Origin: Pyrinomonadaceae bacterium
Lineage (GTDB): Bacteria; Acidobacteriota; Blastocatellia; Pyrinomonadales; Pyrinomonadaceae
DNA: 64,000 bases
Assembly: GCA_041499185.1 (NCBI GenBank)
Contig: JBGQJU010000012.1
Coordinates: 4,790-68,789 of the forward strand
Direction of reading: 5' to 3'
The position numbers were made by a program, and so were the translations under genes. The notes under the pieces are model-generated. The model saw only the letters and a list, made by a program, of their open reading frames with translations, was not told the origin of the DNA and did no database searches. How positions within the stretch are numbered: position 1 is the first letter of the stretch; each line of letters opens with the position of its first letter. Of the stretch, positions 1 through 60,301 are shown in pieces.

Positions 1-1
1 C

Positions 2-283
2 GGCAAAAAAGGGAAACTCACAGTCGAAGCCGGACCCGCGGATCGCGGCAAAGTGTTCTTCAGTGTGACCGACACTGGCGTCGGTATCAGCGCAGAGTTC
101 ATCAAGAAGCGACTCTTCCGCCCATTTGCCACAAGGAAGCCCAATGGAGTGGGCCTGGGACTCTACACCTGTCGCGAGGTCGTCAGGGCCAACGGCGGCA
201 CAATTGAAGTCGAATCTGCAGAAGGCTCTGGCACAACATTTCGTGTCGTGTTAGCATCGGCGCAGATCAAGTCGCGTGACTAG
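2..283 (+). CDS. sensor histidine kinase, C-terminal HATPase_c fragment (5' end lies outside the window)
   Basis: The frame is open from the window edge. It carries the motifs DTGVGI, GVGLGL and GSGTTF, typical of the HATPase_c G-boxes. A response regulator gene follows about 120 bp downstream. Confidence 0.8.
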   Translation, partial: GKKGKLTVEAGPADRGKVFFSVTDTGVGISAEFIKKRLFRPFATRKPNGVGLGLYTCREVVRANGGTIEVESAEGSGTTFRVVLASAQIKSRD

Positions 284-403
284 ATCGAAGCGGTCCACAA
301 TCTTGTCTGGTTGCGCCTGATAATCCTCCCACAATATGAACTAGAGACTGCAACGGCGGTGGCCATCGAGGCTCCGGCTAGAGGTGACGTGCATTAGTTG
401 ACG

Positions 404-1801
404 ATGGGCAATCGAGTAGAAACAAAAGGAACTGTTCTCGTGGTTGACGACGACGACGCAGTTCGCCACGGACTTTTTTGGGCGCTCAAAGGGGACTATA
501 GCGTGCTCGAGGCGAGGTCGCGAGATGAAGCTGTCGAGCTGATCCAGCGCGAACGTATTGACGTCGTCTTGAGTGACCTGCATTTGCCTCCGCATGTTGA
601 CGATCTGTCTGAAGGCCTGGCGATCGTCGAGGCGGCTCGCCGCGAGCGGCCGCCGGTACCGGTCGTGGTAATCACCGCAAGCGATTCGAAGGACGCGGCG
701 CGGGAAACGGTGAAGCGCGGAGCCTACGGCTTCTTTCAAAAGCCGATTGAGACGGACGAGGTCCTGCACATCGTGCGTCAGGCCGTGCGCCTGCGCCGAC
801 TCGAGCAAGAGATCATCCATCTGCGGGATGCGCTGGCGGCGACGAAAGGCTTTGGTCATCTGATCGGCGCGAGCGCGGCGCTGGAGAAAACAATCAAACA
901 GGCGCGCGCCGTAGCAGCGACCAGCGCGACCGTCTTGCTTATCGGCGAGAACGGCACCGGCAAAGAGATGCTCGCGCGCGCCATTCACGAAGAGAGCCCG
1001 CGTGCCAATGGACCATTTGTGGCGGTCAGTTGCGCCGCGCTGCCGGAATCGCTAATCGAATCAGAGTTATTTGGTCACGAGAAGGGCTCGTTCACTTCGG
1101 CAACGCAAATGAGAAAAGGCCGTTTCGAATTGGCTGACGGCGGCACGCTGCTGCTTGACGAAATTGGCGAGCTTACACCGGCGGTGCAGGTGAAACTGTT
1201 GCGCGTCTTGCAAGAGCGAGCGTTCGAGCGCGTGGGCGGAACAAAAACTATTACGGTGGACATTCGCTTAATTGCCGCCAGCAATAGTGATCTGGAAAAG
1301 GAAGTCGCGGCGGGCGCCTTTCGCCGCGATCTGTTTTACCGCCTCAATGTAGTGCCACTGACGTTGCCTGCACTGCGTGATCGACGAGAAGACATACCTG
1401 TGCTCGCGGCCCACTTTGCGGCTAAGGTGGCAGAGAAACATGGGCGGCCCGGGCCAGAACTCGATCCGCTTCTGATTGAAGCGCTCCAGGATTACGAATG
1501 GGCCGGGAATGTCCGCGAATTGGAAAACCTGATCGAGCGGTTGGTCGTGCTGAGCAGTGGTCCAACATTAGGACTGGAGTTCCTGCCCGAAAAGTTGCTG
1601 CGCGTGTTGCCGGACTCCAGTAGAGCTGACGAAACGACACTGGAGGGCGCCGCCACAGCACTGAAGCGTCGGATGATCGTGAGCGCCCTGCAAAGCGAGG
1701 GCGGCAATAAGGTCGCAGCCGCAAAACGACTGGGCATCAGCCGTTCGTATCTGCACCGATTGATTAATGAGTTTGGTTTGGGAGTGTATCACGTGACCTA
1801 A
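404..1801 (+). CDS. sigma-54-dependent response regulator (NtrC family; REC + AAA+ + Fis-type HTH; resembles the PEP-CTERM-box regulator PrsR)
   Basis: REC domain (VLVVDDDD...DLHLPP). Walker A GENGTGKE and Walker B LLLDEIGEL. ESELFGHEKGSFTSA occupies the position of the GAFTGA loop. C-terminal HTH AAKRLGISRSYLHRLI. The ATG at 404 is preferred over the TTG at 398. Confidence 0.9.
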   Translation: MGNRVETKGTVLVVDDDDAVRHGLFWALKGDYSVLEARSRDEAVELIQRERIDVVLSDLHLPPHVDDLSEGLAIVEAARRERPPVPVVVITASDSKDAARETVKRGAYGFFQKPIETDEVLHIVRQAVRLRRLEQEIIHLRDALAATKGFGHLIGASAALEKTIKQARAVAATSATVLLIGENGTGKEMLARAIHEESPRANGPFVAVSCAALPESLIESELFGHEKGSFTSATQMRKGRFELADGGTLLLDEIGELTPAVQVKLLRVLQERAFERVGGTKTITVDIRLIAASNSDLEKEVAAGAFRRDLFYRLNVVPLTLPALRDRREDIPVLAAHFAAKVAEKHGRPGPELDPLLIEALQDYEWAGNVRELENLIERLVVLSSGPTLGLEFLPEKLLRVLPDSSRADETTLEGAATALKRRMIVSALQSEGGNKVAAAKRLGISRSYLHRLINEFGLGVYHVT

Positions 1802-1813
1802 GGGCCTGAGTCC

Positions 1814-2371
1814 TCAATTCAATCTCAGGCTCAGTTGATTACCTTGTGAAACACTGATGTCTCTCATCGTAGGCCCAACATCATTTGGCCAACTGTATAG
1901 AATGCTCTGAAGTCCGCCAGGAAGCGAATTGTCGAGCGCAGCGACAAGTCCCGATACGCGGTAAAAATGAGGAACCATTAGATCGTCTTGGCTTACCAGC
2001 ACATTGGCTGTACGAGTCCCGAGCTTTTCCAGTAGGGGCTTGGGATTCTTGAGAAACGCAATTAGGAAGAACTGCAGCTGGTATTTCACTTGGGATGCAG
2101 CTGAATAGGAAAAGACGGGCCCGTGAGAAAACTCATCAGTCAGCGGTGACAGTTCAAAAGAATTGAAACTTCGAAGAACTGGGACTTCTTCGAGTAGTTC
2201 GCGTCGAGCTGCTCTTCTTAGACTTCGGCCATCTTGATCCCGCTCATGACCACCAATAAAATTTATGTCCTTCCACCTTGGATCTCGACGCATCAGGTAG
2301 TGGGACGCACCATCAATTTGGAACTTCATGACAATGAAGCCACAACGAGAGATTTTGAGATTCTCACTCAT
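1814..2371 (-). CDS. Nudix hydrolase family protein
   Basis: Nudix-box-like GGHERDQDGRSLRRAARRELLEEVPV. The start overlaps the stop of the upstream gene by 4 nt (ATGA). GC is lower than in the flanks. Confidence 0.75.
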   Translation of the reverse strand: MSENLKISRCGFIVMKFQIDGASHYLMRRDPRWKDINFIGGHERDQDGRSLRRAARRELLEEVPVLRSFNSFELSPLTDEFSHGPVFSYSAASQVKYQLQFFLIAFLKNPKPLLEKLGTRTANVLVSQDDLMVPHFYRVSGLVAALDNSLPGGLQSILYSWPNDVGPTMRDISVSQGNQLSLRLN

Positions 2372-3714
2372 GACCCACTTCCAATCTGGTTAAGGATGGC
2401 TCGCGACCAGCTTTCTAAGCTCAGCTCGTCCTCATGGCCTATCAAATCACCCAAATCCACAAACTCCCCAACGAGTCCATGACCGCGCTTTTTTCGAAAC
2501 TCCTTCTTCTTGAGATCCATCGCCGTATGTGGGTTGTCGATACGGATTCTATAGACGAGTCCAAAATGACGGCTGCTTTTGGCGTCATCACGGTCCCAAC
2601 AGTATCCTGCGGGGTCAGCGGCAAAGACTCTACTCACAAAGAGAGAACCGGACACTCTCTCCTGCAACGTCGACTTTAATAATTCTGGAATACTGGTACC
2701 TTCTCCCTTTGTGACGTGGCATCCCTGCCAAATCGTTGCTTTGCCGTATAGTCGATACTTAGGGTCAGCCTCCTTTCGCTGAAACAAGAACACTTGATCC
2801 TCGTAGGTCAATAAGCCGCAGGGAATGATTTGGACGTACGCGGATTCCAATTCAGCATCCACTCTTGACATGAATCTCCCACATTCTTTAATGCATGAGA
2901 TGGCATCGATAACAGCTTTCTCCCCAAAGGCTCCACCACGTTCTAGTGGAAGTGTCTGCAATTCTTTTCTTGGAACAACCAGTACCTCCGGATTCAGGAA
3001 AGCTTCCAGGCAATCTAGAATCTTCGACACTAACTCGATATTCGACTCCCTAGGCTTTTGCCCGGTAGTCTGATGTTTGATAATTGCGCCGAACCTGGAG
3101 CCGTAGCGTTTCGACGCTTCTTCGACAGACTCAGTAATAGCAGCCAACACTGGCGGGTTCATGATGCTACCCATCTTTTGGGTGATGCGATTGGCGGTTT
3201 CACGATCAAGCGCTTCTTCAGCGGACACGTTCATAACGATCGCCAAATCAACTAATCTACGCCAACGGCTTAACAAGAGGAAAGTCTCTATCGTTCTGGC
3301 TTCGCTGGCAGTTAACTCGCCGCGTTTTTCCTGCAATGTCATCCAGACAAGCGCGTCGAATAGGCCTCGGTCGATAATAATAAGATCCGTTTCCGTCTCC
3401 ACATTCGCGAGAAGTTCTGCGAGCATGGATGCAGCGCACCACGTGTTAAAGAACAAGTGTCCCTTCATTGGAATAGGGCAAACTGCGGCTCTCTCTGCCA
3501 ATACATGGACCCGAAAGCCTTGGCGCGTGAAGAAGTGACGGATGGCCTCTACAGATGTGCTTTTGCCTGATTTTGGAGTGCCGGCGAATTCCATAACAAA
3601 AGCCCGAGGGGCGTATTGAAGGAATCCCCTTAACTTGTCCGCCCGAGCCTCTAGTTTTGTTACTTCGAACTCGATATCGGAGGACACAACACTTCCCTTA
3701 TCAGAATTGTCCAT
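2368..3714 (-). CDS. fusion protein: N-terminal P-loop nucleoside/nucleotide-kinase-like domain + C-terminal Nudix-fold-like domain
   Basis: Walker A GTPKSGKST and a dNK-like DRGLFDALVW motif. The C-terminal about 200 aa (IIPCGLLTYEDQVFLFQRK...WQGCHVTKGEG...LQERVSG) has a Nudix-like layout with a degenerate box. Confidence 0.7.
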   Translation of the reverse strand: MDNSDKGSVVSSDIEFEVTKLEARADKLRGFLQYAPRAFVMEFAGTPKSGKSTSVEAIRHFFTRQGFRVHVLAERAAVCPIPMKGHLFFNTWCAASMLAELLANVETETDLIIIDRGLFDALVWMTLQEKRGELTASEARTIETFLLLSRWRRLVDLAIVMNVSAEEALDRETANRITQKMGSIMNPPVLAAITESVEEASKRYGSRFGAIIKHQTTGQKPRESNIELVSKILDCLEAFLNPEVLVVPRKELQTLPLERGGAFGEKAVIDAISCIKECGRFMSRVDAELESAYVQIIPCGLLTYEDQVFLFQRKEADPKYRLYGKATIWQGCHVTKGEGTSIPELLKSTLQERVSGSLFVSRVFAADPAGYCWDRDDAKSSRHFGLVYRIRIDNPHTAMDLKKKEFRKKRGHGLVGEFVDLGDLIGHEDELSLESWSRAILNQIGSGS

Positions 3715-3871
3715 AGTCAGCGGTGTCTATGTTTCCTGAAAGCCTCGAAGAACGATTCTGATCAGATTGGAGATCAAAAACTGGGTTACCGTATCACGCC
3801 ATACGATTGCTCGCAACGGCGAGAAACCGGCGATGTTGGAGAATATCCGTCAAATCTTTTTTGCTGCCAGC

Positions 3872-5875
3872 TCACTGCCCAGGCGCGGTCGTCGATCCTT
3901 TTTCCTTTCGCTCGCCAAGCTTCACGATCCACAAGCCGGTGTGAATATCGTTGAAGTAGATCAACCCATTCTGCGGCTGCGCGCCCCAGCAGAACGGCAG
4001 GTTCGGACGATAGCCTTCTGCGTCTCCGGTCCAGATGCGACCGATTTCGCGTCCTTGCCGATACAGATCGCCGCGCAGCTCGCCTGAGACATCGACCACG
4101 CGACCGCCACCGCTGTAGTAGCCCATGTACATGATGTCGTTATCGACCCACATGTTGTGAGCGCCCGCTTCGGGAACCGGATACTCTGCCACCTTGCGCG
4201 GGTGCTCGATGTCGGAAACGTCGATGACGTGAGCAATGCCCCGCACCGGAATGCGTTTCCTGGACACAAGATTGAACGTCGCGGGGAAAACCTCATCGCC
4301 GATGAAGACATAGTTCTTATAACGAAAAACTGAGTGCGTTCCGGCGAGCCAGCCATTACCGTAAAGCTCGTTGTGGTTGAAGCGAAACTGGCTGACGAAC
4401 TCAGGCTTTTCCGGGCTGCCACCTTTAATACCATTGCCGACGTCGAGAATGATTAGTCCGTCTCGCCAGTAAGCGAGATAGGCTAGTCCGTCCTTCACTT
4501 GCAAGTCGTGCAAGTACCGCCCGCCGACCTCTTCGCCTTCGGCGGTCTTGACCGTATTCGCCACCTGATTATCAACTTGCCAGCGCGCGACTTCTTTCGG
4601 ATTTTTCACATCGGCAAAATCTATAACGCGCATCGAGCCGGTCGCGTCGTCGGTGAGATAGACGTAGTGGCCATTGACGAACGCGCTGTGCACGCCGCCC
4701 GTCACCGTGAGCGTGTATTCAGAGATTGGTTTTGGATGTGCCGGATCGGAGTTGTCATAGAAGGCGATGCCGTTCTTACGATTCGAAGCGCCCTCGCGCG
4801 AGATAACGAGGATCTTTCCGTCCGCGGTGGTGCTGATGTCGTTGATGATGCGCGCGTCAACTTTAATGGTATCGGTCAGTTTTGGATGCGCGGGATCGGA
4901 AATGTCATAAACGAAGAAGCTATCTGAAATCGTGGAGAAGTAGGCATGGTTGCCCATGATCCACTCTTCCGCGCCCTGAACATCTTTCAACGGCGCGCGC
5001 CCTACGACTTCGAGCGTGCGCTCGGCTTTCCGCGGCGTAACCACCACGGACCCACTCGCGATGCGGGCGCCGATCGTTGCGGTCACGATGTAAGTTCCCG
5101 GCTGCTCGGCGACAAACCCGCCATCGGGATCGATTGTCGCGCCGGCGCCACTCACGGCCCAGCGCGGAGCAAAATTTTCACTTGAACCGCTTGGCACCGC
5201 TTTGAAGTGGATCACGTCGCCGGTGCGACCGTTTGCGGAAGCAGGTTCGACTGATAGTCCGCTCAGGGTGTTCTTAACTACGTTGACTGCGACCGTTCCG
5301 CTTGCTGAACCTGAGCTGGCGCGCAACGTTGCTTTTCCAGGACCGATTCCCGTGACCATGCCGGCGGCGTCCACTGCGGCGACGGACGGATTCTCCGAGG
5401 CCCAGGCCAGGTTTACGTCGCTGCGCGGGTTGCCGTTGAAAACCCGCGCAGTAGCGTTCAACTTGATCGTTCCTCCGACGATGATCGGCGCGCTCAAGGG
5501 ATCAATCTCAATCGTTTTCACCGGCGCGGGTTTGACGGTAACTTTTGTGAAGCCCGGTTTACCGGCGATGAGCGCTCCGACCGTTACCTCGCCCGGTTGA
5601 TAGAAACTCACAGTGCCGTTCTCGTCCGCGGCCGCCAGATCAAACGGCGCCGCAAACCAGACAGCGGTCTTCTCGTCGAGTGGCTTGCCCGAGTCATCCT
5701 TTGCCACAGCGGAAAACTTCACCTTTTGACCGACTTCGATGTCGGTCGTTGCCGGCGTGACCTCAACGGTCTTAACCGTCGGACCATTTGTGCCCTGACC
5801 GCGAGCTGCGCCAGCGGTGATGGCCATTAGCAATGAAAGGCACAAAACAACAAAAACGTCTCGGGCTGTTCGCAT
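3872..5875 (-). CDS. secreted protein with Big_2 Ig-like domains and an LVIVD-repeat beta-propeller
   Basis: Signal peptide MRTARDVFVVLCLSLLMAITAGAARG preceded by AGGAG. Repeated Ig-like segments (VEVTPATTDIEVGQKVKFSAVAKDD...). LVIVD-type repeats (DGKILVISRE, DGLIILDVGN, GGRVVDVSG, GLWIVKL). The ATG at 5875 is preferred over 5923. Confidence 0.8.
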   Translation of the reverse strand: MRTARDVFVVLCLSLLMAITAGAARGQGTNGPTVKTVEVTPATTDIEVGQKVKFSAVAKDDSGKPLDEKTAVWFAAPFDLAAADENGTVSFYQPGEVTVGALIAGKPGFTKVTVKPAPVKTIEIDPLSAPIIVGGTIKLNATARVFNGNPRSDVNLAWASENPSVAAVDAAGMVTGIGPGKATLRASSGSASGTVAVNVVKNTLSGLSVEPASANGRTGDVIHFKAVPSGSSENFAPRWAVSGAGATIDPDGGFVAEQPGTYIVTATIGARIASGSVVVTPRKAERTLEVVGRAPLKDVQGAEEWIMGNHAYFSTISDSFFVYDISDPAHPKLTDTIKVDARIINDISTTADGKILVISREGASNRKNGIAFYDNSDPAHPKPISEYTLTVTGGVHSAFVNGHYVYLTDDATGSMRVIDFADVKNPKEVARWQVDNQVANTVKTAEGEEVGGRYLHDLQVKDGLAYLAYWRDGLIILDVGNGIKGGSPEKPEFVSQFRFNHNELYGNGWLAGTHSVFRYKNYVFIGDEVFPATFNLVSRKRIPVRGIAHVIDVSDIEHPRKVAEYPVPEAGAHNMWVDNDIMYMGYYSGGGRVVDVSGELRGDLYRQGREIGRIWTGDAEGYRPNLPFCWGAQPQNGLIYFNDIHTGLWIVKLGERKEKGSTTAPGQ

Positions 5876-6021
5876 TATTATTCTCCTGAAGTGAATAGCA
5901 TATTTGGGCGATGTGACTTGCAATCTTATGCGTTGGAGATCCGCCGCGCAAGCAACGGGGCCGTCAGTGCTTGAACGGAAACCCTCATTACGCCATTATT
6001 CTGTACAAGGTTTCAGTTAGC

Positions 6022-7500: not shown

Positions 7501-10500
7501 ATGGTTCCGCCAGGCTCGAGTCATGGAGTTAGGGTGTCAAAAGAAATCTGGTTAGGTCCGCTGCTTGGCAACAATCGTTCGCGTTTGGTCGAGCGCTGCG
7601 CCGATCTTGTCTCACAAAACAAGGCTAACAGCTTTCTGTATCTCGCCGCTTCTCATCCGCTGCTGGAGATCGTCACGCAAGGTATTCTTGATGGTGAAAA
7701 TAATCGCGGCGTTTGGGGCGAGTTGCCCGTCTATCTCTTTCGTGGTCTTGTCAGGCGAATTCTTTCAGCTGCTATTGACGAAAGTGGGCAGACGCTTACA
7801 CCACGCGTTCCGATCGACCAAGACGAGCTGCCGCTAAGACGAAGTTTGATCTCGCAGATTCTGGCGCGTCTGATGGGTACGGGCAAACTGAAAGCAATCG
7901 CCCCGCTCGCCTATCGCGAAGGATGCATCAATACGATCGCGACGCTGATTGGCGAGATCGAGCGGGCCGCCAAGTCACCCGCCGAAGTTACAGCGATCAT
8001 CGCGGCCCGCACCAATGACCTTGCACCACAAACAAGTGCGACGAAGCGCGGCGTTCATACGCAGATTGATTTCGATAAAGAGGTCGCGCTGATCTACTCG
8101 ACTTATTGCGAGTTGCTGAATCGGCATCGGCTCACCGAAGCAGACGCGGATAGTTTGCGCGCTCTCTCAGTTCTCAACGGCGAGCTTGACGGGCAAAAGG
8201 TACAAATCTCAGCGCTGGCCGATGTGCAACTGCTCGTGCTCGATGGCTTTTTTGACTTCACGCCGGTGCAGGGCGAGATCTTGCGTCGGTTAGTTCCCCG
8301 GATTCCCAAGGTAATCGTCAATCTGAATCACGACGAGCGCAATCCGGAGATCTTTCTGCCGTTTCAGGAAACCATCGAGCATATTTCGTCCGTCGCGCCT
8401 TTTGAGAAAAAGTGGAGCGGCTATAAGAACATCGCTCTTACACGCGGCGCTCTCTCGGGTCTGCGGGAAAACTTGTTCAATCCCTCACTATCTACCGAGC
8501 AACAACCCGAAGACCCTGGGAGCGGGGAGGCAGTCGAGATCCGATACTTTGAATCTGGTGATCGCGATACCGAGATTCACGCAGTTGCCAAAGAGATCAA
8601 ACGGCTCGTCCTGCGTGAAGGTTACAGTCTGGCGGACGTCGCGCTTGTCGTACGTCAGCGCGCGTCGTACGCCGACACGATCGCTCGCGTGATGCGCGAA
8701 GAATCGCTGCCCTGCAATCTGGAATCAAGGATTGTAGCCAACGACATTCCCGCCAACCGCGCAGCGCTCAAACTGTTTGCGATTCTCGAGCAGCTTTCGC
8801 GTGACGAAATCACTACTCCGAAAGTTTCCGCGCTGGCCGACCTGATCAAGTCGGAATACTTCCGTCTGAGCGAGGAAGATCTGAGCTCACTTTTGTCGAA
8901 GTTCAATGCCGAGCACTCCGGGCTGTTGCGGGAAAGCGATCAAACGCCTGACGCCAAACGCGAAGCACAACTAAAAAATCGTTACCGCATCGGTGTGTGG
9001 GACGCGGACTCACTTGAGAATACGTTCGCCTATGTAGGCAGCGAACTGCGCGTGAGCGAGTGGCTAAACCGCGCCCGCCAACTGATAAAAGAACTTCCCG
9101 CCGCCGCCGCAACCAAAGAACTTCTGAACATCGACACCACCGAGCAAGCGCGCGATCCGGACGAGGCCGACCAGATCGAGAACGCCGAAACGGCAAAGGT
9201 TGAGAGTGCGGACGTCGAGAAGAAGCGTCGCCCATCGCGCGACATCCATCCCGCAGCGATCGCCTGGGCCTCGCTCGTGATTCAAAGTTTCGCCGAGCGG
9301 ATACAAGCCATTTCCCGCGAAGGCAAGCCTGCCGATTTGCGTCTGGCGTTGATGAAATTGCTCGATCACTTCTGTTTTCGCGAGCAAATTGCAAAGCCAA
9401 TCAGGAGTGCAGTTCAAGACCGCGAACTCCCGCTAGCAATGCTCAACTTCAATAGTCTCGAATCCCTGCGTCGCGCTTTTGTGGCGACCATCAAGAGTAT
9501 CGAGATCGCCGCTGACATCGGGTCAGAACCACCTGCGGTAGCGGGTGGGTTTAATGCGGCAACAACAACCAGGCTCGCAACTTTCATTGAAGAGGTGCGT
9601 CGTTGCCTCGGCTCGCAGTCGCAACTGTTTGGCGCCAGGGATGCGCGAGGCCTGCGCGTGCTCGAAGCAACGGACGTGCGTGGACTGCGCTTTCGCGCCG
9701 TCTTCATCGCGGGATTGGTTGAAGGTGGATTTCCCTTGCGTGCTTCGCGTGACTGGATCTACCCGCATGAAGAGCGCGAGCGGCTGAAAGTTTACGGCCT
9801 AACGCTGGAAGATATTTCGCCGGCGACGCTTTTGAAAGAGGAACACTATTTTTATCAGGCAGCGTGTCGCGCCACCGAACGGCTCTACCTCAGCCGCCCG
9901 CTATTGTTGGAAGACGATTCTGAAACCGTCGCCTCTTATTATATCGATGAGCTGCGGCGTGCCGTCGCGCCACTTAAGATTGAAGCTGAGACGATTCGTC
10001 GCGATTACGACGCCAAGAACCTGGAGGAAGTCTCAACCACGAGCGAACTGGATGTCGCGTTGGTGCGCCAGCAAGAGAGGCACATTCATCGCGGCGAGAA
10101 ACGGGAGTTACTGCCACAGCCACGCATCAAGCGAATGCTGACCCTGGCGCGCAACGATGGTTTCCTGAGCGACTCCGCCTTGCGGCGCATCGAAATCGAG
10201 CGCGAGCGCGCCAGTCAATCGTTTGGACCTTACGACGGCGAGATCACCGATCCGCATCTGATTGCCCTGCTGAACCAGAGATTCGGTCCGAACTTTGTGC
10301 ATAGCGCGAGCGGCCTGAGTGTGTATGGCAATTGCGCGTACCGTTTCTTTGCCCAGCGAGTATTGAAGTTGGAGCCGCGTGGTGAAGCGGCGCTCGATCT
10401 GCAAGCGATCGACGCGGGCAAGCTGCTGCACGACATTCTGCGGCGTTTCTTCGAGCAGCATCGACGCCAGCCGCTTTATAAATTGGATCGCGAAGCGCTG

Positions 10501-11271
10501 CAAAAAGAGCTGCGCGATCTGGCGGACGGAGTCTTCAACGAACACGAGCGAGTCGTGCCGCCGCTGAACAAACAGATCTGGAAGATCGATCGCGAGATTC
10601 GCAAGATCCTGCTGGATCAGGTGCTTTTGTATGAGCTGGAGATGCAAGAAAAGGCTGCTGCTCATGGAGTCTTGCCGGCGTATTTTGAGGTCGCGTTTGG
10701 CGGTATGAAATCCACGGCGAGAGATCCTCACTCGAAAGATGAACCACTCGAGCTGACTCGTTCCACCTTCGTCGGCGAAGAGACGATCAAGATCAGCGGT
10801 CAAATCGATCGCGTCGATATTGCCGGCGACAACACGCTCATCGCCTATGACTACAAACTGTCAACTGGATCCACCAAAGACGACATCAAGTCGGGCCGCA
10901 GTCTGCAGCTTCCCATTTATCTGGAAGCTTTGGAGAAATTGATACTCCCGCGTCACACGATCGCCGGTGGCGGCTACTACGTGATACGCGGCGGCAACGA
11001 CCGCCGGAATAAAGGACTTCATCGCGCGAGCGCGTTGGATTACTCCGGAATCAGTGCTCGAGCGGGCGCCGTCATTGCCGATGACGAGTGGCAGCAGATT
11101 CGCGACGAAGTGATCGCGAAGATCTGGGATTTTCTAGATCACATGCGCGCCGGGCAGTTCGTGGTAAATCCTTCCGAGAAGGAAAAGACATGCCGGTTCT
11201 GCGATTTTGCGGCGGTGTGCCGATATGACCGGTATCGGATTGAGAGGAAGAAGCGAAGAGATGACGGTTAG
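7501..11271 (+). CDS. addB: AddB-like helicase-nuclease subunit (inactive helicase-like N-terminus, C-terminal PD-(D/E)XK nuclease with Fe-S cysteines)
   Basis: Size 1256 aa with no Walker A at the N-terminus. C-terminal nuclease motifs GNCAYRFFAQRVL, IDRVD, AYDYK, and CRFCDFAAVC (C...CxxCx5C). Lies in a locus with an AddA-like gene. Confidence 0.8.
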   Translation: MVPPGSSHGVRVSKEIWLGPLLGNNRSRLVERCADLVSQNKANSFLYLAASHPLLEIVTQGILDGENNRGVWGELPVYLFRGLVRRILSAAIDESGQTLTPRVPIDQDELPLRRSLISQILARLMGTGKLKAIAPLAYREGCINTIATLIGEIERAAKSPAEVTAIIAARTNDLAPQTSATKRGVHTQIDFDKEVALIYSTYCELLNRHRLTEADADSLRALSVLNGELDGQKVQISALADVQLLVLDGFFDFTPVQGEILRRLVPRIPKVIVNLNHDERNPEIFLPFQETIEHISSVAPFEKKWSGYKNIALTRGALSGLRENLFNPSLSTEQQPEDPGSGEAVEIRYFESGDRDTEIHAVAKEIKRLVLREGYSLADVALVVRQRASYADTIARVMREESLPCNLESRIVANDIPANRAALKLFAILEQLSRDEITTPKVSALADLIKSEYFRLSEEDLSSLLSKFNAEHSGLLRESDQTPDAKREAQLKNRYRIGVWDADSLENTFAYVGSELRVSEWLNRARQLIKELPAAAATKELLNIDTTEQARDPDEADQIENAETAKVESADVEKKRRPSRDIHPAAIAWASLVIQSFAERIQAISREGKPADLRLALMKLLDHFCFREQIAKPIRSAVQDRELPLAMLNFNSLESLRRAFVATIKSIEIAADIGSEPPAVAGGFNAATTTRLATFIEEVRRCLGSQSQLFGARDARGLRVLEATDVRGLRFRAVFIAGLVEGGFPLRASRDWIYPHEERERLKVYGLTLEDISPATLLKEEHYFYQAACRATERLYLSRPLLLEDDSETVASYYIDELRRAVAPLKIEAETIRRDYDAKNLEEVSTTSELDVALVRQQERHIHRGEKRELLPQPRIKRMLTLARNDGFLSDSALRRIEIERERASQSFGPYDGEITDPHLIALLNQRFGPNFVHSASGLSVYGNCAYRFFAQRVLKLEPRGEAALDLQAIDAGKLLHDILRRFFEQHRRQPLYKLDREALQKELRDLADGVFNEHERVVPPLNKQIWKIDREIRKILLDQVLLYELEMQEKAAAHGVLPAYFEVAFGGMKSTARDPHSKDEPLELTRSTFVGEETIKISGQIDRVDIAGDNTLIAYDYKLSTGSTKDDIKSGRSLQLPIYLEALEKLILPRHTIAGGGYYVIRGGNDRRNKGLHRASALDYSGISARAGAVIADDEWQQIRDEVIAKIWDFLDHMRAGQFVVNPSEKEKTCRFCDFAAVCRYDRYRIERKKRRDDG

Positions 11272-11328: not shown

Positions 11329-12705
11329 ATGCTAATTCCCGGATGGATTCTCGACGAGATTAAGGCAGACCAAGAATTGAGACCTTCCGAGGGCCGCCTC
11401 CATTTGGCTAATTTAGTAGCTTCTACGGAGCATCACGCAAAAAAAATTGTTGGCGGTACCGTCCTGAGATATAGGATGGTTAAATTGCACAATCAAGTGG
11501 TGAAGGCCTACGACTTTCCGACAAATCGAACCGCTCGGATCTCTATCAAAGTTCCCGCCATAAACCGCCTGTTTGAGCTTGTGATCGGACTTGCTCATCC
11601 GATGTCGAGAACGGAAGCGATCGTTCTGTACGCAATAGCCGCTGCACATATTGCGGCGGGCGAAAGCATAGGAGCCTCATACTACTATCTTACGTCGTCT
11701 TGGCTCCAGAGAATGGATGAAGAGATTATTGCTCTCGCCTTGAAAACTCTTGTAGATCAAGATTGGAAGGTTCCCATTGAGAGGGATGTGTTAGACGAAG
11801 CATTTCAATTTGTCGAATCACTAATGACGACGAGTTATGAGGGACGCGCGCCTGAGATAGGTGTCGCCGTAACGCGGACAAGAAGACATCAAGACGAGTT
11901 GAAAGCAATAAAGCTCCGGGACCTCCTGCTGTCAAAGAAGACCAGAGCTTTATTTGCCGGACATCGTAATCTTCTCATTTGCACACGGAATGGCGAGGTG
12001 CACCAGAGTTATATTAATCTTTCGCCTTATTCGGATGTGCCGCTAATGCCGAAGGGCCGGCCCTGGTATTTGGCTCCGTACGAGTACCAACCGATCATGG
12101 AGTTTTCGCGCAAACGCAATGCTGTTACGTTCTTGTTAACCCGCAAACGAGAGGTATTGGTTATTCTAGGGTCCCAGATTCATTTCATAAGAAGCGCCCG
12201 AGCGTGGCGCGTTCTCCCGATGGAGAGGTTCATCGGTCTGCTAAGCGAACTCTTATGGAAAAACTCGAAGAAGCGTTTGTCCCGCGATCGTTCTCGTACC
12301 TTGGCTGGATATATCGGAATTCTCTGTCTCTCTTTGCGAGAGCGTGGGAAAGGTGGTCTATTCGGCATTTACGGGAACGGAAGAAAACCCAAGGAATCAT
12401 CAATTCCAGCATCGCTAACAGAAGAGTTTTTTCAGTCTTTGCTTTGTAAGCGACCAATTGTTGAGGTGCCAGTTTCCATGATGTGCAACGCTGCTGCAGT
12501 GGACGGGGCGACTCTGTTGGCCTGGGACGGAACGCTGGAGAGATTTGGAGTTATTGTCAACACAGGGAAGTTGAAAAGTCCGAGCGAAGGAGCACGGACC
12601 CGAGCGGCTGAATTCATCTCACGCCGAGGGATCGCAGTTAAGGTGAGTGAGGATGGAGAGATTACTCTGTTTGCGGCCGGTAAGCCGTTAATGAGAGTCG
12701 ACTAG
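11329..12705 (+). CDS. hypothetical protein with a C-terminal DisA_N/diadenylate-cyclase-like domain (degenerate RHR motif)
   Basis: The C-terminal about 120 aa (GKGGLFGIYG...AAAVDGATLLAWDGTLERFGVIVN...SEGARTRAAEFISRRGIAVKVSEDGEITLFAAG) follows the DAC pattern (DGA...GTRHRAA...vSeetG.isl), with RTR in place of RHR. GC is clearly lower than in the flanking addB and addA. Confidence 0.6.
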   Translation: MLIPGWILDEIKADQELRPSEGRLHLANLVASTEHHAKKIVGGTVLRYRMVKLHNQVVKAYDFPTNRTARISIKVPAINRLFELVIGLAHPMSRTEAIVLYAIAAAHIAAGESIGASYYYLTSSWLQRMDEEIIALALKTLVDQDWKVPIERDVLDEAFQFVESLMTTSYEGRAPEIGVAVTRTRRHQDELKAIKLRDLLLSKKTRALFAGHRNLLICTRNGEVHQSYINLSPYSDVPLMPKGRPWYLAPYEYQPIMEFSRKRNAVTFLLTRKREVLVILGSQIHFIRSARAWRVLPMERFIGLLSELLWKNSKKRLSRDRSRTLAGYIGILCLSLRERGKGGLFGIYGNGRKPKESSIPASLTEEFFQSLLCKRPIVEVPVSMMCNAAAVDGATLLAWDGTLERFGVIVNTGKLKSPSEGARTRAAEFISRRGIAVKVSEDGEITLFAAGKPLMRVD

Positions 12706-12741
12706 CCAGATTACATGTGGACTCCCATGATCGTACTGTTC

Positions 12742-12950
12742 GCGGCTTTGCCGCCCGATGTGCGGTAGGTCTGTGTCTGTCTGTGACCTTCCGTCAGCTG
12801 AAGCCAAGACTTCGGGGCTACGCCCCTGAGATTCGGTAGGGCGTTCAGGATCACCATCGTCTACGGCGCCAAACATATGGGCGCAGCCCCAACAATAAAC
12901 CCTGACACCGGAAGGGCAGAGCCCTTCCGCACATCGGGCGGCAAAGCCGC
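12742..12950. repeat. 209-bp element bounded by perfect 24-bp inverted repeats (MITE- or structured-RNA-like)
   Basis: gcggctttgccgcccgatgtgcgg (12742-12765) is the exact reverse complement of ccgcacatcgggcggcaaagccgc (12927-12950). Internal hairpin ggaagggc-aga-gcccttcc at 12910-12928. Confidence 0.85.
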
Positions 12951-12954
12951 TGCC

Positions 12955-15900
12955 ATGAAACAAAAACAACTCCAACCTGAACAGGCCGCGGCAGCATACG
13001 AAATAACCAGGCACATCTCTGTAACCGCCGGCCCGGGTTCCGGCAAGACGATGGTGCTGGTCGAGCGTTACTTGCACATTCTGCGCGAGCGCAAGCTCTC
13101 GATCGATCAAATCGTCGCCATCACCTTCACCAATCGCGCGGCGAACGAAATGCGCGAGCGTCTCAGAGAGCAACTCAATGACATCCTGCAAAGGGCATCG
13201 GGAGAAGACAGAAAGCATTGGCTTGATTACAAACGCACGCTGGATGGCGCGGTAATCACGACAATTCACGGTTTCTGCGCGCGGCTGCTGCGCGAGTTTC
13301 CGGTCGAAGCGCGTGTCGATCCACAGTTTCTCTTGCTCGATGAGCACCGCGCGGCGATGCTGCTGGAAGCCGTGGTCGAGGAAGCGCTCACGGAGTTTAT
13401 CAGCTCCGGCCACGTCGAAATCTCACGGCTAACACTCGGCGTCGGACGTGGCAAGTTGGCCGCCGCGCTCGCGCAACTTTACCGCGAAGTCCGTGGACAG
13501 GGCCTTTCATTGAAAGACCTCGCGCGGAAGACCGTGCAGAGTCACTCGACCGAAGACGATCATGCGCAGGCACTCAATGAGCTATCGCGTACGATGAATG
13601 ACTTTCTGATATTGCGAAGGACAACTGCGGCGCAAAGAAACAATCAAGCAGAAGTTAGTTCCAATTGGTCCAATCTGCGTCCTTTGCTTCATACCATCCC
13701 CGAGCCCGAAGCGTTGGCTGATTACTGTCGCGCGGTCGAGAGTTTCCGCAAGTCGCGCCCGCAGGCCCGGGGCGATCTTGCGTCGCACGTAAAAGCACTA
13801 GACGAGTTGATTTGGGAAAAGGATCTGCTCGGGCGGGTTCCGCAGCTTTGCCTGGACCTGTTCGCCAAACAGTACGCGCTCGAGATTGTCAACGTGCTGA
13901 CGCGCATCGACGAACGACTGAATGACGAGAAGCAGAAACTGTCGGCGCTTGATTTCGACGATCTCGAACTGCGCGCGCTTGAACTGTTGGAACGCCCGGA
14001 AGTACTAACGCGTGCCGCTGAGCGATACAAATTCTTTCTGGTTGACGAGTTCCAGGACACGAATGGTTTGCAGCGAAGGCTGCTCGAGCGGCTCGCTTTT
14101 CAGAAAGGCCGCCGCGAAAGCGCGAACCTGTTCATTGTCGGCGATCGCAAGCAGTCGATCTACGGTTTTCGTGGTGCGGATGTCGATGTCTTCCGCGAGA
14201 TGACAAACACGTTGACGGCGGCCGGCGGTGAATCAAAACCGCTGCTGCTAAATTTTCGCAGTCAGCCGCCGCTGATCGATTTTTTCAATTACCTGTTCGA
14301 GCGATTGTTCCAGCCCAAAGAAGAGGTCACTCAGCAGGAGCGAGAAGAGCTGGGCTATGTCGAGCACGAACCGAGCGAAGCGAAACGTGAACTGCGCGAT
14401 AGCGGACCGCTGGTTGAGTTGCTGGTGACAACGGAAGCGTCGGGTGACGATGACGATCCAAAAGCGGAGCAAACCTCTCGCGAGCTTGATGCGGAACAAT
14501 TGGCGCGACGGATTATCGACCTTACGGGGAGCGCAGGCACTATCCACTCAGACAAGTTGGCAATTCCAATTGAAGGCGGGCAGGATGCCCGCGCTCCCAG
14601 GTACAGTGGTATCGCGCTCCTGTTTCGCGCGATGACCAATGTGCAACGGTACGAATCGGCTTTTCGCCGCGCAAATATTCCTTATCAAACGGTGCTTGGG
14701 CGAGGCTTCTACCAACGCGAAGAAATCACCGATCTGATCCAACTACTGCGATTTCTCGATAACAAAACCGATGAGTTGGCGCTGGCGGCGGTGCTGCGTT
14801 CACCACTGTGCGGCGCATCGGACAATGCCTTGCTGGCGCTGCGTTGCGCGCCGTGGCTGGATGAACTAGACAGCGGCGATCCGCTGCTGCACTTCACGAA
14901 CACGCGCCATCTGGTTACCGCACTGCGCCGGCATCGCGAGATAGCATTTATCAGCGATGAGGAACACGCGCTGCTCGATCGCGCGGCCGAACTAATCAAC
15001 GATCTGGTGGTGCGTCGACATCATTACGCCCTCGGCGATCTGTTGCGGTTCGCAGTCGAACATTCAGAATACTTGACTGTGATTGCCGCCACCTTCGACG
15101 GCGCGCAGCGGCTGGCGAATGTGCAACGGCTGTTCACGCTCGCCGAGCGCTTCGAACGCTCAGGCACTCATCTAATTCGCGACTTTGTGCGCTACGTTGA
15201 GGAATTCGAGGCGATCGGCAGCCGCGAAAGTGAAGGGCAGATCGATGAAGCCACGAACGCCGTGCGCTTAATGACCATTCATCAGGCCAAGGGTCTCGAA
15301 TTTCCTGTAGTCATCATTCCCGAGCTGCAGCGATACTCTAAGGTGATGGATAACTGGTTCCTCTCGGATCGTCATCGCGGTCTGACTCTGAAGGTGCCAG
15401 ACGGACGCGGCAAGTTAGTTGCCGGCTGTACCTTTAACCGCTTCGAACAACGCCACGCCTGGCGCGAGCAGTTTGAAAGCATGCGGCTGCTTTATGTCGC
15501 GGCGACCCGCGCGCAGGATCGATTGATACTCTCGGGCACAACCAAGGAACTCGAAGGTCTCACCGGCAAGAGCGATACCTGGCTGAAGTGGATCTGGCAA
15601 TCGCTCGGTCTGGAAGCTCAAACGCAGAGCGGCGTCATCGATCTAACTGACGATGTCCAGATTCAGCTTTCACTGAACCTTGCGGACCAGCCGGAGCAAC
15701 CAATACTTGCCGAGGCAACGACGACGGAAAAGACTTGGGAAGCTGCGGATTCACTCGCTGAAGCTTTCCCGTTGTTGAAGCTGATCGAACCTGGGCGAGC
15801 TGCCGGCCTGCATCGTTTCAGCGTCACACAGTTGATCAACTATCGCCGTTGTCCGCGTCAATACTATTTCGATCGGGTGTTGCGGTTGCCATCGTCGGAA

Positions 15901-16839
15901 GAGATGGCCGTCTGGAACGATGCGGAAGCTCCCGAGCCGCCTGCCAATTTGACCGCGACGCTCAAGGGGGCAGTCATTCACCGCTTCTGCGAAATATTTT
16001 GCCCCGGTGACGATCCGGTCGTGCGTTTGCGCCAGAGTTTTCAGGATCTCATTCGACTGAGAAAGGCGCAGCTCGCGGATCGATTGCCCGACATAGATGG
16101 AGAGCAGGCCGTGACGGAGTTGCTGCCGCTGGCCGAGCATTATCTTGCGAGCGAAGTGTTTCAACGCATCAATGAAGCGCGCGCTCACTGTGCAGCCGAC
16201 TCAATCGCCTGGCCGTCAAACAATGGTGGTCTTTGGAGCGAGTTGGGATTTCGTATCCGTCGTCCGCTGGGAATCTTGACGGGTGCAATCGATAAACTTC
16301 TGGTTACGCCCTCAAGTAACGCGTGCGACGTCGAAATCATCGACTTCAAAACCAACCGCCTGCCGGGACCGCGGACGCTTCGGGGTCCCCAGCGGAGCGT
16401 CAAAGGCGCTGGAGCGATACCTGCCGTAGTTAGCACGGTGCAACAAATTGCTTTCGACTTTACCGAGCCAGCCCCACAGAAACGTGCGGAAGACGCCACG
16501 GAAATTGACGAAGCCGTACGGCGGCTGGCCTCAGATTATCAACTGCAAATGCAAGCCTACGCTCTTGCCGTTCGCGAGTTACTACCCGCGCCCGTCAACG
16601 ATCACAACCGAATCAAAGTCACACTTCACTTTCTCGATCCGAATGTCGAGTACAATCTGCCCGAAGAATTACTCGAGCCGGCCGTCTGTGCTCGCGCCAT
16701 CGATGAAGCAATGATTGAGATCGTCTCTTCACGCGAGCCGACAGACTTTCCCGTTCACCCAGCCATTCATTGCCGCACGTGCAACTTTCTTGAGTTGTGC
16801 TCCGGCGGGCGAGAATGGCTGCGCCACAACAAAACCTAG
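12955..16839 (+). CDS. addA: AddA-like UvrD/Rep-family helicase with a C-terminal PD-(D/E)XK nuclease
   Basis: Walker A AGPGSGKT, motif II FLVDEFQDT, helicase motif VI LLYVAATRAQDRL. C-terminal nuclease with CPRQYYF...IIDFK...CRTCNFLELC. The ATG at 12955 is preferred because the upstream extension covers the inverted repeat. Confidence 0.85.
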   Translation: MKQKQLQPEQAAAAYEITRHISVTAGPGSGKTMVLVERYLHILRERKLSIDQIVAITFTNRAANEMRERLREQLNDILQRASGEDRKHWLDYKRTLDGAVITTIHGFCARLLREFPVEARVDPQFLLLDEHRAAMLLEAVVEEALTEFISSGHVEISRLTLGVGRGKLAAALAQLYREVRGQGLSLKDLARKTVQSHSTEDDHAQALNELSRTMNDFLILRRTTAAQRNNQAEVSSNWSNLRPLLHTIPEPEALADYCRAVESFRKSRPQARGDLASHVKALDELIWEKDLLGRVPQLCLDLFAKQYALEIVNVLTRIDERLNDEKQKLSALDFDDLELRALELLERPEVLTRAAERYKFFLVDEFQDTNGLQRRLLERLAFQKGRRESANLFIVGDRKQSIYGFRGADVDVFREMTNTLTAAGGESKPLLLNFRSQPPLIDFFNYLFERLFQPKEEVTQQEREELGYVEHEPSEAKRELRDSGPLVELLVTTEASGDDDDPKAEQTSRELDAEQLARRIIDLTGSAGTIHSDKLAIPIEGGQDARAPRYSGIALLFRAMTNVQRYESAFRRANIPYQTVLGRGFYQREEITDLIQLLRFLDNKTDELALAAVLRSPLCGASDNALLALRCAPWLDELDSGDPLLHFTNTRHLVTALRRHREIAFISDEEHALLDRAAELINDLVVRRHHYALGDLLRFAVEHSEYLTVIAATFDGAQRLANVQRLFTLAERFERSGTHLIRDFVRYVEEFEAIGSRESEGQIDEATNAVRLMTIHQAKGLEFPVVIIPELQRYSKVMDNWFLSDRHRGLTLKVPDGRGKLVAGCTFNRFEQRHAWREQFESMRLLYVAATRAQDRLILSGTTKELEGLTGKSDTWLKWIWQSLGLEAQTQSGVIDLTDDVQIQLSLNLADQPEQPILAEATTTEKTWEAADSLAEAFPLLKLIEPGRAAGLHRFSVTQLINYRRCPRQYYFDRVLRLPSSEEMAVWNDAEAPEPPANLTATLKGAVIHRFCEIFCPGDDPVVRLRQSFQDLIRLRKAQLADRLPDIDGEQAVTELLPLAEHYLASEVFQRINEARAHCAADSIAWPSNNGGLWSELGFRIRRPLGILTGAIDKLLVTPSSNACDVEIIDFKTNRLPGPRTLRGPQRSVKGAGAIPAVVSTVQQIAFDFTEPAPQKRAEDATEIDEAVRRLASDYQLQMQAYALAVRELLPAPVNDHNRIKVTLHFLDPNVEYNLPEELLEPAVCARAIDEAMIEIVSSREPTDFPVHPAIHCRTCNFLELCSGGREWLRHNKT
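14527..14598. repeat. 72-bp REP-like hairpin element embedded in-frame in addA
   Basis: The arms gggagcgcaggca and tgcccgcgctccc are complementary at 12 of 13 positions. It shares the same termini as the intergenic element at 20332-20420 and contains the sub-hairpin gcgggca-gga-tgcccgc. Confidence 0.7.
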
Positions 16840-59112: not shown

Positions 59113-59190
59113 GGTTTACCTTCTTGTCAGGTTTGAACGGGCTGCCTACAATAACGTAACCTGGTGCAAAACCTGCGAACGGAGACAATC

Positions 59191-59649
59191 ATGCCTAAAG
59201 AAGGAAGTGCCGCGCCGACATTCAAGACTACCGACGCCAACGGGAACACGGTGAAACTGGCAGACTTTCGCGGCCAGAAAGTCGTGCTCTACTTTTATCC
59301 CAAAGATGACACACCCGGTTGCACGAAAGAGGCATGTTCCTTTCGCGATGCTTTTGCAGATTTCAAGAAGCGCGGCATCAAAGTCCTCGGTGTTTCACTG
59401 GACAACGAGGCTTCCCGTCAGAAGTTTGCCAAAAAGTACAAACTGCCCTTCACGTTGCTGGCCGACACAGATCGCTCCATCTCAGAGGCTTACGGGACTT
59501 ATGGCCAGAAGAAGTTCATGGGGCGAACATACATGGGCGTGCATCGCATGACTTTCCTGATAGACGAGAAAGGCAAGATCAAGAAGATCTTCGAGAAAGT
59601 TAAGCCCGAAGAGCATGCCAGTGAGGTCCTCGAAGCCTTCAGCGAGTAA
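59191..59649 (+). CDS. bcp: peroxiredoxin Bcp (thiol peroxidase)
   Basis: [23 protein letters not shown] active-site motif. The ATG at 59191 follows GGAGACAATC. Confidence 0.9.
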
Positions 59650-59665: not shown

Positions 59666-60301
59666 TCAAGCCGCGACCCAGCCAGCAATCTTTTCCGGTT
59701 CGCCCTCTGGGTTTTTGCCAGGCATTAAGACCTGCAGTGAGCTGAAGCTACTGGGCACGTCTCGTTTTCGAGGCGGCACTGGCAGAGACTGGCCTGCTTC
59801 CTCGTTAATCGCCAGTTCGGGCGGCAACTCGCTGATGAAATACATCCTCGTGTTTTCAATCACTTCCGTCCTGATTTCCCGGGTCCAGAGTAAAAGGTTC
59901 GCCAGCGCGTCGCCAATCTCGTCTTTACCTAGCTTGGTCTCATGCGCGATTTCTTTCTGAGTTCTTGCTCCATTTCTGATCGCTTCGCGAACGCGTTCGA
60001 CGGGAGTCATTTTGCTAACCTGCCGCGCGACATACTGTTGTCGCGCAGACAGCACTTCAGTGTCCTCCGGAAATTCTGCACCAGGCTCCAGAACTCTCTG
60101 CGTTAAGTACTGCTGTCGTACTGATTTGTACGCCTTCAAAGCCCTGCGGCTTTCAGTAACTTTACGGCGGATGCAACCTTTGCAATACAGATTGCGGCCG
60201 TCTTTGCGGGCGCGGCAAATTCCAAATTCCGTCAACGCCAGAACCTGAGAACAAATAGGGCACTGCTTTGAGTCAGGTATAAGCTCAGCTCGTTCCGTCA
60301 T
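59666..60301 (-). CDS. hypothetical zinc-ribbon + winged-helix-like protein
   Basis: CPICSQVLALTEFGICRARKDGRNLYCKGC (a pattern common in phage and plasmid proteins). HTH-like ARTQKEIAHETKLGKDEIGDALANLL. Lower GC. Confidence 0.55.
   Translation of the reverse strand: MTERAELIPDSKQCPICSQVLALTEFGICRARKDGRNLYCKGCIRRKVTESRRALKAYKSVRQQYLTQRVLEPGAEFPEDTEVLSARQQYVARQVSKMTPVERVREAIRNGARTQKEIAHETKLGKDEIGDALANLLLWTREIRTEVIENTRMYFISELPPELAINEEAGQSLPVPPRKRDVPSSFSSLQVLMPGKNPEGEPEKIAGWVAA

Follow-up and report, generated by a model that had tools for sequence, protein, structure and literature searches.

A low-GC two-gene cassette beside ntrC

Two overlapping minus-strand genes at positions 1814–3714 of the 64,000-nucleotide stretch analysed here (hereafter the window), which comes from contig JBGQJU010000012.1 of a member of the Pyrinomonadaceae, form a compact cassette between an ntrC-like gene and a Big_2 gene. 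Gene 1 encodes a predicted kinase fused to a Nudix-fold domain with a degenerate catalytic box, gene 2 encodes a stand-alone Nudix protein, and both lie within an insert that is missing from the nearest relative, L087 (GCA_009772875.1). The features of the locus are as follows.

1778..3873, unstranded: inserted cassette, 2,096 bp (blastn against L087; junction contig from metagenome X13)
1778..1801, plus strand: rewritten 3' end of ntrC, with six added codons (GVYHVT) and a new stop (comparison with L087)
1814..2371, minus strand: gene 2, stand-alone Nudix protein, 185 aa (open reading frame list, homologues, structural model)
2368..3714, minus strand: gene 1, kinase–pseudo-Nudix fusion, 448 aa (open reading frame list, at least 241 homologues, AlphaFold model)
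2371..2982, minus strand: TM1382/YmaB-type Nudix-fold domain of gene 1, aa 245–448, box degenerate (Foldseek, hhalign)
2983..3714, minus strand: N-terminal helix and P-loop kinase domain of gene 1, aa 1–244 (Foldseek, conserved motifs)
3715..3873, minus strand: 159-bp leader inside the insert, from the stop of the Big_2 gene to the start of gene 1

As stated in a preliminary description of this DNA, the two genes overlap by ATGA (2368–2371; junction GGG TCA TGA / ATG AGT), and 12 nt separate the stop codon of gene 2 (1814–1816) from the TAA (1799–1801) of the convergent ntrC-like open reading frame (398..1801, plus strand). Translation also placed the motifs reported there at the expected positions, namely GTPKSGKST at 3556–3582, DRGLFDALVW at 3343–3372 and the gene 2 box GGHERDQDGRSLRRAARRELLEEVPV at 2177–2254. 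Since homologues of gene 1 are 436–441 aa long, its translation may in fact begin about 10 codons further downstream than listed, at a GTG.

The region 1814–3714 has a GC content of 0.488, the lowest of any 1.9 kb in the window: 1900-bp segments taken every 100 bases across the 64 kb have a mean GC of 0.556 (sd 0.023, minimum 0.489), and none falls below the cassette. GC at third codon positions is 0.53 and 0.44 in the cassette genes versus 0.63–0.67 in the neighbouring genes. The module is therefore low in GC, as had been claimed, but the flat level of about 60 % attributed to its flanks was not found, the flanks lying at about 54–60 % and the window mean at 55.6 %.

The leader upstream of gene 1 showed no conservation across 21 copies, and a promoter and terminator scan of leader and cassette gave no signal exceeding the shuffled background. 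An Rfam scan of the cassette and 11 related loci detected no riboswitch or other element, only two tRNAs, both in the Kofleriaceae locus L014; one of these tRNA genes (8394–8468) lies about 600 bp downstream of the cassette, which makes L014, of the 11 loci covered, the only one where a tRNA gene adjoins the cassette.

The cassette is accessory and horizontally mobile

Alignment to L087 by blastn covered window positions 1–1776 at 93 % identity and 3871–6000 at 88 %, with nothing between; in place of the 2,096 bp of the window, L087 has a 126-bp spacer with a long GC-rich hairpin (L087 9003–9128). The slot is also empty in L088. In metagenome X13, one contig joins position 1777 to 3874, omitting the 2,096 bases, and depth is 1–6x over the cassette versus approximately 20–68x on the side of the Big_2 gene, from which we conclude that carriers and non-carriers coexist. 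The insert left its mark on the adjacent gene as well: NtrC ends in ...NEFGLGVYHVT* in the window versus ...NEFGL* in L087, where the stop directly precedes the hairpin spacer, and the narrow 12-bp gap between the stop codons is thus explained by the rewriting of the ntrC 3' end. The GC-rich hairpin spacer that the insert replaced is conserved and, lying between the Big_2 gene and ntrC, probably acts as a bidirectional terminator; terminator prediction between gene 2 and the convergent ntrC found no such site.

The same pattern extends to related loci. In 77 of 77 loci the GC of the cassette lies below that of the flanks, on average by 10.5 points and by as much as 26, and the neighbouring genes are unrelated, no Pfam family occurring more than twice among 142 neighbouring open reading frames taken from 18 loci. 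The empty site in L087, the X13 junction contig and the AT-richness at every locus together give strong support to the earlier proposal of horizontal acquisition, and the cassette is accessory and horizontally mobile.

The slot between the Big_2 gene and ntrC holds a DUF2442 gene (9135–9428) in L089 and, in the more distant L081, the cassette together with an extra unknown 287-aa gene (11915–12778). It has the appearance of a local hotspot of small accessory genes. At other loci, an integrase gene lies 1.3 kb upstream of the cassette in L084, and in the isolate Terricaulis silvestris (CP047045; L082 8290–11906), a cultured carrier, the cassette is flanked by gyrB and a solitary gene for a phage terminase large subunit, near dnaA-dnaN-recF.

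Gene 1 joins a P-loop kinase to a pseudo-Nudix domain

Gene 1 has at least 241 homologues, of which the best 120 are 52–96 % identical and come from several phyla. Existing annotations of the family read only 'hypothetical' or 'predicted NUDIX phosphoesterase/thymidylate kinase'. An AlphaFold model made from 21 homologues (predicted local distance difference test, pLDDT, 84; predicted template modelling score, pTM, 0.84) fell into two halves when compared with the PDB by Foldseek. The N-terminal half matched thymidylate kinases (Tmk), the deoxynucleoside kinases dNK, dCK and dGK, and PPK2, at E ~1e-6 and a target-normalised TM-score of at most 0.70, and the profile of the kinase family gave weak full-length matches to deoxyguanosine kinase 2jas and to dNK. 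With these enzymes gene 1 shares the fold, the Walker A motif, a [DE]R-x-x-x-D motif that follows strand 3 and a conserved arginine in the lid segment, whereas it differs from them in having a signature of its own (E-F-x-G-T-P-K-S-G-K-S, ERA..CPIPMKGH, FNTW and DRGLFDALxW) and an extra N-terminal helix.

Among 29 members of the kinase family, Pfam returned AAA_28 for 21, Thymidylate_kin for six and dNK for two, all sub-threshold (best E-values of the latter two 1e-4 and 1e-3), and for gene 1 itself the Pfam and NCBIfam scan returned Walker-A-only sub-threshold matches to MeaB and AAA_28, with nothing near the NCBIfam family cutoffs. The domain has the P-loop nucleoside monophosphate/nucleoside-kinase fold with Walker A and a DR/ER motif, but by the thresholds of the curated models and the substrate-binding residues it does not qualify as Tmk or dNK. 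By fold and profile it is accordingly classed as a member of the superfamily and not as an orthologue of Tmk or dNK. The kinase is presumably active, because the Walker A motif, the DRG motif and the lid-like RE...GSIMN segment are intact.

The C-terminal half of gene 1 matched the putative Nudix hydrolase TM1382 (3e57) in the PDB at E 5.7e-10. It shares with TM1382 and Bacillus YmaB both the fold and the signature R..AE, VQ.IPC, H.G, EF, L.E/D.WS; it differs in being fused to a kinase and in having no GGH...REUxEE box, which TM1382 and the other clades of the present family keep. We take TM1382 and the Bacillus YmaB-like Nudix proteins to belong to COG4112. In an hhalign comparison, the domain aligned with the intact partner Nudix proteins of those other clades over 192 columns (99.9 %, E 1e-31), and the intact members in turn match 3e57 at 6e-18. 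The box survives as a remnant, GCHV...LQERVSGSL (2641–2724), in which GGH has become QGCH and REUxEE has become ERVSGS (clade consensus ERISRS) with loss of the metal-binding glutamates, and the remaining family-invariant positions of the TM1382/YmaB type are retained. Fold and profile comparison thus bore out both the kinase–Nudix fusion and the degenerate box that had been called from the letters alone.

The domain is a homologue that has probably lost hydrolase activity, and we read it as a candidate pseudoenzyme, that is, a non-catalytic nucleotide-binding, regulatory or docking domain. There is precedent for a Nudix fold that serves without catalysis as a ligand-binding regulatory domain in NrtR, AraR and NadQ; in those proteins, however, it is fused to DNA-binding domains and regulates transcription, whereas the degenerate domain described here is fused to an enzyme, and resides in gene 1 rather than gene 2.

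Searching a plasmid database with gene 1 returned only Bacillus proteins, which aligned to the Nudix half and are YmaB-like. One such homologue (L083) is encoded directly after nrdE-nrdF and near a dCMP deaminase gene. It is carried by the 204-kb Bacillus halotolerans plasmid NZ_CP114067, where the stretch L083 1541–7432 encodes NrdE, NrdF, the YmaB-like Nudix protein, a PD-(D/E)XK nuclease, dCMP deaminase and RusA; the block resembles a phage-like deoxynucleotide-metabolism block. For YmaB, deoxynucleoside triphosphate (dNTP) pyrophosphohydrolase activity has been reported and described as preliminary (PMC5960316).

Gene 2 belongs to a rare Nudix subfamily

The structural model of gene 2 (pLDDT 86) has a generic Nudix alpha/beta/alpha fold with a helical C-terminal extension. 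It gave 109 matches in the PDB at E<=1e-3, the best 50 of which are all Nudix-fold proteins; AraR and NrtR come at the top, and ADP-ribose pyrophosphatases, RppH and BdRppH are found as well, all at the generic level of TM 0.35–0.5. The box (GGH...RRELLEEVP) contains the stretch R56 R57 E58 L59 L60 E61 E62, invariant in 14 gene 2 homologues. In the preliminary description it was called near-canonical, which is true of the REUxEE core and not of the rest: P64 stands in place of the final G, and two extra residues lengthen the loop ahead of the helix, so that nine positions separate the acidic residue from RE, against seven in GX5EX7REUXEEXGU. Gene 2 thus has the Nudix fold and the glutamates of the REUxEE box, with two deviations. 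The Pfam NUDIX model scored 19.1 bits on the window protein, under its cutoff of 21.1, and PF00293 is carried by several homologues. Judging from the box, we read gene 2 as the likely source of hydrolase activity in the cassette.

A gene 2 profile found 189 matches at E<=1e-3 among 1.84 billion cluster representatives, and some of these occur in informative fusions. P0345 is a natural triple fusion of 575 aa that comprises the kinase, the dead Nudix domain and a gene 2-type Nudix domain, and in P0370 a pyrimidine-nucleoside phosphorylase is fused to a gene 2-type Nudix domain. P0378, P0383 and P0387 are proteins of 1,000–1,660 aa with a TCAD9 domain and a gene 2-type Nudix domain at the protein end; P0378 also has a weak AAA_14 match and two Nudix copies. 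TCAD9 is a domain of NTP-dependent 'ternary' conflict systems (Kaur et al., eLife 2020, PMC7159879).

We also considered whether gene 2 arose by recent duplication of the fused Nudix domain and dropped the idea as unsupported: profile comparison aligned only the 36-column box, at 77 % probability.

Three architectures share one kinase

With each species represented by one genome, a scan of 185,579 species genomes produced 95 confirmed matches, a lower bound given detection by pattern, and 80 loci were kept. These fall into three architectures. In the first, found in Dehalococcoidia and other Chloroflexota, a kinase of about 240 aa and a TM1382-type Nudix protein of about 215 aa are encoded by separate adjacent genes, often with a 4-bp overlap. 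In the second, found in Acidobacteriota, Verrucomicrobiota and a few others, the kinase is fused to a Nudix domain with an active box and gene 2 is absent. In the third, to which the window belongs, the kinase is fused to the degenerate Nudix domain and gene 2 follows. Across the 80 loci, GGH...REUxEEU is canonical throughout the first two architectures and degenerate only in the third, and gene 2 was seen immediately after gene 1 in every one of the 22 complete loci of this third clade (17 + 5) and nowhere else among the loci.

A neighbour-joining tree built from the kinase domain recovers the third clade as monophyletic and has the host phyla scrambled; proteins from Acidobacteriota, Alpha-, Gamma- and Deltaproteobacteria, Planctomycetota and Chloroflexota are 52–76 % identical. 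A reasonable reading is that in one event a second Nudix protein was recruited and the fused Nudix domain turned into a pseudoenzyme under continued purifying selection. The motifs E-F-x-G-T-P-K-S-G-K-S, FN.W, DRGLFDALxW and RE...G..MN are invariant throughout the three architectures, and the kinase is therefore the constant, presumably active core of the family.

Searches for a link to defence

No description of the module was found in the searchable literature (papers on NARP3 and NAD-ADPr proved irrelevant to the cassette), and this agrees, together with the PADLOC result given below, with the preliminary statement that it is not a named system. Neither IMG/VR, searched with two pattern sets, nor the GenBank phages contained a homologue of the kinase family or of the fusion. 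The gene 1 Nudix half is matched by phrog_8902, and the structural matches include viral dNK and dTMP kinases and TM1382-like phage Nudix proteins, which are analogues at the level of the fold.

Among the 142 neighbours, scanned from loci L001–L022, the defence families comprised AbiLi (two open reading frames), AbiEi (one), a PD-T4-6-like kinase (one) and mad (one or two), counts for which there is no matched control set. Some loci adjoin toxin–antitoxin or abortive-infection genes, for example PhdYeFM, HicB-like, DUF4258 and AbiL. In L085, a pair of AAA_21 and RloB genes (3080–5122; AbiL-like) lies 3 kb upstream of the cassette.

Likely substrates and a possible role in phage conflict

In the preliminary description the cassette was taken for a nucleotide-modifying or nucleotide-depleting module, and kinase and Nudix combinations were said to act on NAD/ADP-ribose and (d)NTP pools. 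What stood of its interpretation was the horizontal origin and the domain calls; for an action on nucleotides the argument comes from homology, and it favours (deoxy)nucleotides rather than NAD or ADP-ribose as the target. Deoxynucleotides are the likelier of the two because of the Tmk/dNK fold, the nrdE-nrdF-linked YmaB-like homologue and the nucleoside-phosphorylase fusion, and NAD/ADP-ribose is less likely because the proteins lack an NMNAT domain and the 25 top neighbour families include none of the NAD pathway. On the strength of these relationships, (deoxy)nucleotides are the most likely substrates. The cassette likewise has neither the NMNAT domain nor the NAD context of the NadR/NadM NAD-salvage fusion.

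With moderate confidence, we interpret the locus as a mobile accessory (deoxy)nucleotide kinase/pyrophosphohydrolase cassette in three parts that is possibly used in phage conflict. The biochemical identity of the parts, a kinase of the Tmk/dNK class, a TM1382/YmaB pseudo-Nudix domain and a separate active Nudix protein, is well supported; which substrates they act on, how the two activities are coupled and what biological role results are inferred. The Nudix enzyme would cut a (deoxy)nucleoside triphosphate or a related nucleoside polyphosphate to the (deoxy)nucleoside monophosphate and pyrophosphate, the kinase would phosphorylate a (deoxy)nucleoside monophosphate or (deoxy)nucleoside, and both would together constitute a cut-and-rephosphorylate cycle that resets, drains or cleans the (deoxy)nucleotide pool. 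The benefit would depend on conditions, and we suggest, more cautiously, that it would most plausibly arise in phage conflict, either by a drain on dNTPs and ATP or by destruction of non-canonical phage nucleotides.

The role in phage conflict is plausible but unproven. Its accessory and polymorphic status, universal low GC, gene coupling, TCAD9 kinship and occasional AbiL, AbiE and toxin–antitoxin neighbours are hints in this direction, and homologues are not embedded in a housekeeping pathway with native GC and without island context. Known systems offer parallels. Phage T4 encodes a dCTPase (gp56) and a dNMP kinase (gp1), and other phage pairs of dNTPase and dNMP kinase exist. The logic of an NTP pyrophosphatase and an NMP kinase that redirect the deoxynucleotide pool is the same, but the fusion and kinase have no phage homologue in the databases searched, and no nucleotide-modifying enzyme lies beside the cassette pair. 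Anti-phage systems that deplete nucleotides include the dCTP deaminase and dGTPase defences, with which the cassette shares a possible outcome, the draining of dNTPs, and an accessory, mobile distribution, but no sequence or fold relationship and no PADLOC match. With the TCAD9 ternary systems (PMC7159879) it has in common the rare gene 2 Nudix subfamily (W-K-D..IGGH...RE..EELP), which also ends TCAD9 proteins; the cassette has no TCAD9 domain, STAND NTPase or other component of these systems, and the link consists of a shared domain subfamily at E ~1e-6 to 1e-7.

Several observations weigh against this interpretation. PADLOC-DB v2.0.0 gave no family at E<=1 for gene 1, gene 2 or their fused relatives, the phage collections searched gave no homologue of the kinase or the fusion, and a defence-type neighbour was present at three to four of 18 loci, a number that, in a comparison without a control set, does not clearly exceed the background. 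A search of the cassette ends for direct or inverted terminal repeats and target duplications gave only chance-level matches, and integrases and transposases do not figure among the 25 Pfam families seen most often in the 142 neighbours. In L081 the cassette is at the same locus and the module is 76 % and 61 % identical versus 67–73 % for the flanks, a flank-like divergence from which it follows that the history here is at least partly vertical. This also shows that GC alone fails to date the acquisition, since vertically inherited copies are low in GC too. For the same reason, homologous recombination of the flanks, or ancestral presence followed by losses, fits better than site-specific integration. 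As to the mechanism, a kinase and an NTP pyrophosphatase form a futile cycle unless their specificities differ or they are regulated, and the 'dead' domain could catalyse through non-canonical residues.

A more ambitious version, which we offer tentatively, is that the cassette is a new anti-phage or anti-plasmid system in which the pseudo-Nudix domain is a nucleotide sensor that checks or informs the kinase. With the Nudix hydrolase, a regulated cycle would then collapse dNTP and ATP pools or destroy phage-specific nucleotides on infection, and the split, fused and dead-domain forms would be successive solutions of one immune module.

The most serious competitor to a conflict role, although we consider it unlikely, is non-defensive accessory nucleotide salvage or house-cleaning, in which the cassette would sanitise damaged or non-canonical dNTPs and re-feed the monophosphates, or buffer dNTP pools in a substrate cycle, in the way proposed for YmaB next to ribonucleotide reductase, and would be kept where useful and lost elsewhere. 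The kinase and TM1382 folds and the nrdE-nrdF-linked YmaB-like homologue fit this equally well. So do the absence of visible defence-island enrichment and of a PADLOC match, the mostly ordinary metabolic genes among the neighbours, the split pair of the Dehalococcoidia, which is common to many species with local synteny within sub-lineages, and the shared locus in two diverged Pyrinomonadaceae. Yet the cassette is never found inside a nucleotide-metabolism operon at more than 80 loci, it is as rare as the species scan indicates (95 in 185,579, a lower bound), its GC is universally below that of the host, and it is polymorphic between near-identical strains; its very high conservation across phyla points to repeated transfer over host-specific adaptation.

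Distinctly less probable is a toxin–antitoxin-like unit, in which phosphorylation by the kinase would yield a toxic nucleotide or nucleotide-sugar, in the manner of the zeta/PezT kinases, and the Nudix protein would destroy the product, as DarG reverses DarT. The ATGA overlap, the empty site and the polymorphism do make this a compact, coupled, mobile two-gene unit, small and AT-rich, that crosses phyla without mobility genes; the kinase always has a hydrolase partner, a new one having been recruited once the fused one died, and the toxin–antitoxin and abortive-infection neighbours mentioned above would fit as well. However, kinase and active Nudix domain are combined in one polypeptide across a whole clade, and all three parts in P0345, which is unusual for toxin–antitoxin pairs, and the Foldseek matches listed are nucleotide and nucleoside kinases, with no zeta toxins.

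An NAD/ADP-ribose module, with a NadR-like ribosylnicotinamide-type kinase and ADP-ribose or NAD pyrophosphatases acting on NAD pools or ADP-ribose-derived signals, was dropped as lead hypothesis when no NAD-pathway domain or neighbour was found, and we now regard it as very unlikely. AAA_28, the commonest Pfam match of the kinase family (21 of 29 members), is a family that we take to include the NadR kinase domain, and gene 2 has structural matches to the NrtR Nudix domain and to ADP-ribose pyrophosphatases, among others; but the former matches are sub-threshold and the latter generic (TM 0.35–0.5). Neither protein has an NMNAT or other NAD-pathway domain, none occurs among the 25 top Pfam families of the neighbours, and the group in which the fused Nudix domain falls, TM1382/YmaB, has links to nrdEF and dNTPs. 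It also counts for this alternative that NAD or ADP-ribose is the target commonly assumed for the Nudix domains of conflict systems (PMC7159879). Finally, nucleic-acid 5'-end processing for repair or decay, by a polynucleotide-kinase-like enzyme that converts 5'-OH to 5'-P and an RppH-like Nudix enzyme that converts 5'-PPP or an NAD cap to 5'-P, is highly improbable, for although RppH and BdRppH are among the gene 2 structural matches and both activities converge on a 5'-monophosphate, no polynucleotide kinase is among the best 50 structural matches of the kinase domain and no ligase, nuclease or RNA-repair partner is seen in the neighbourhoods.

Irrespective of function, the cassette is a previously undescribed module built from known domain families, and the family is strongly conserved (52–76 % identity, at least six phyla) while spreading horizontally and being polymorphic between near-identical strains. 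It provides a clean natural experiment in pseudoenzyme evolution, since loss of the box coincides exactly with the second active Nudix gene and the triple fusion unites the three parts. If the pair proves to act on dNTP pools against phages or plasmids, a kinase-based mechanism would join nucleotide-depletion immunity; if the role is metabolic, it would define that of the unexplained TM1382/YmaB Nudix group. With two genes in 1.9 kb, the cassette is small enough for direct experiment.

Other low-GC regions of the window

Two further regions of lower GC were seen in the window. The first, at 11242–12955 (GC 0.49), is a second insertion relative to L087 and contains a 458-aa open reading frame (11329..12705, plus strand) between an addB-like gene (7501..11271) and an addA-like gene (12877..16839), which are about 420 bp apart in L087. 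This open reading frame has no PADLOC match and a sub-threshold Pfam match to DAC/DisA_N only (residues 387–452). The second, at 59000–60800 (GC about 0.50), contains a 211-aa open reading frame (59666..60301, minus strand) with no Pfam or PADLOC match and a gene for an AhpC/TSA peroxiredoxin (59164..59649).

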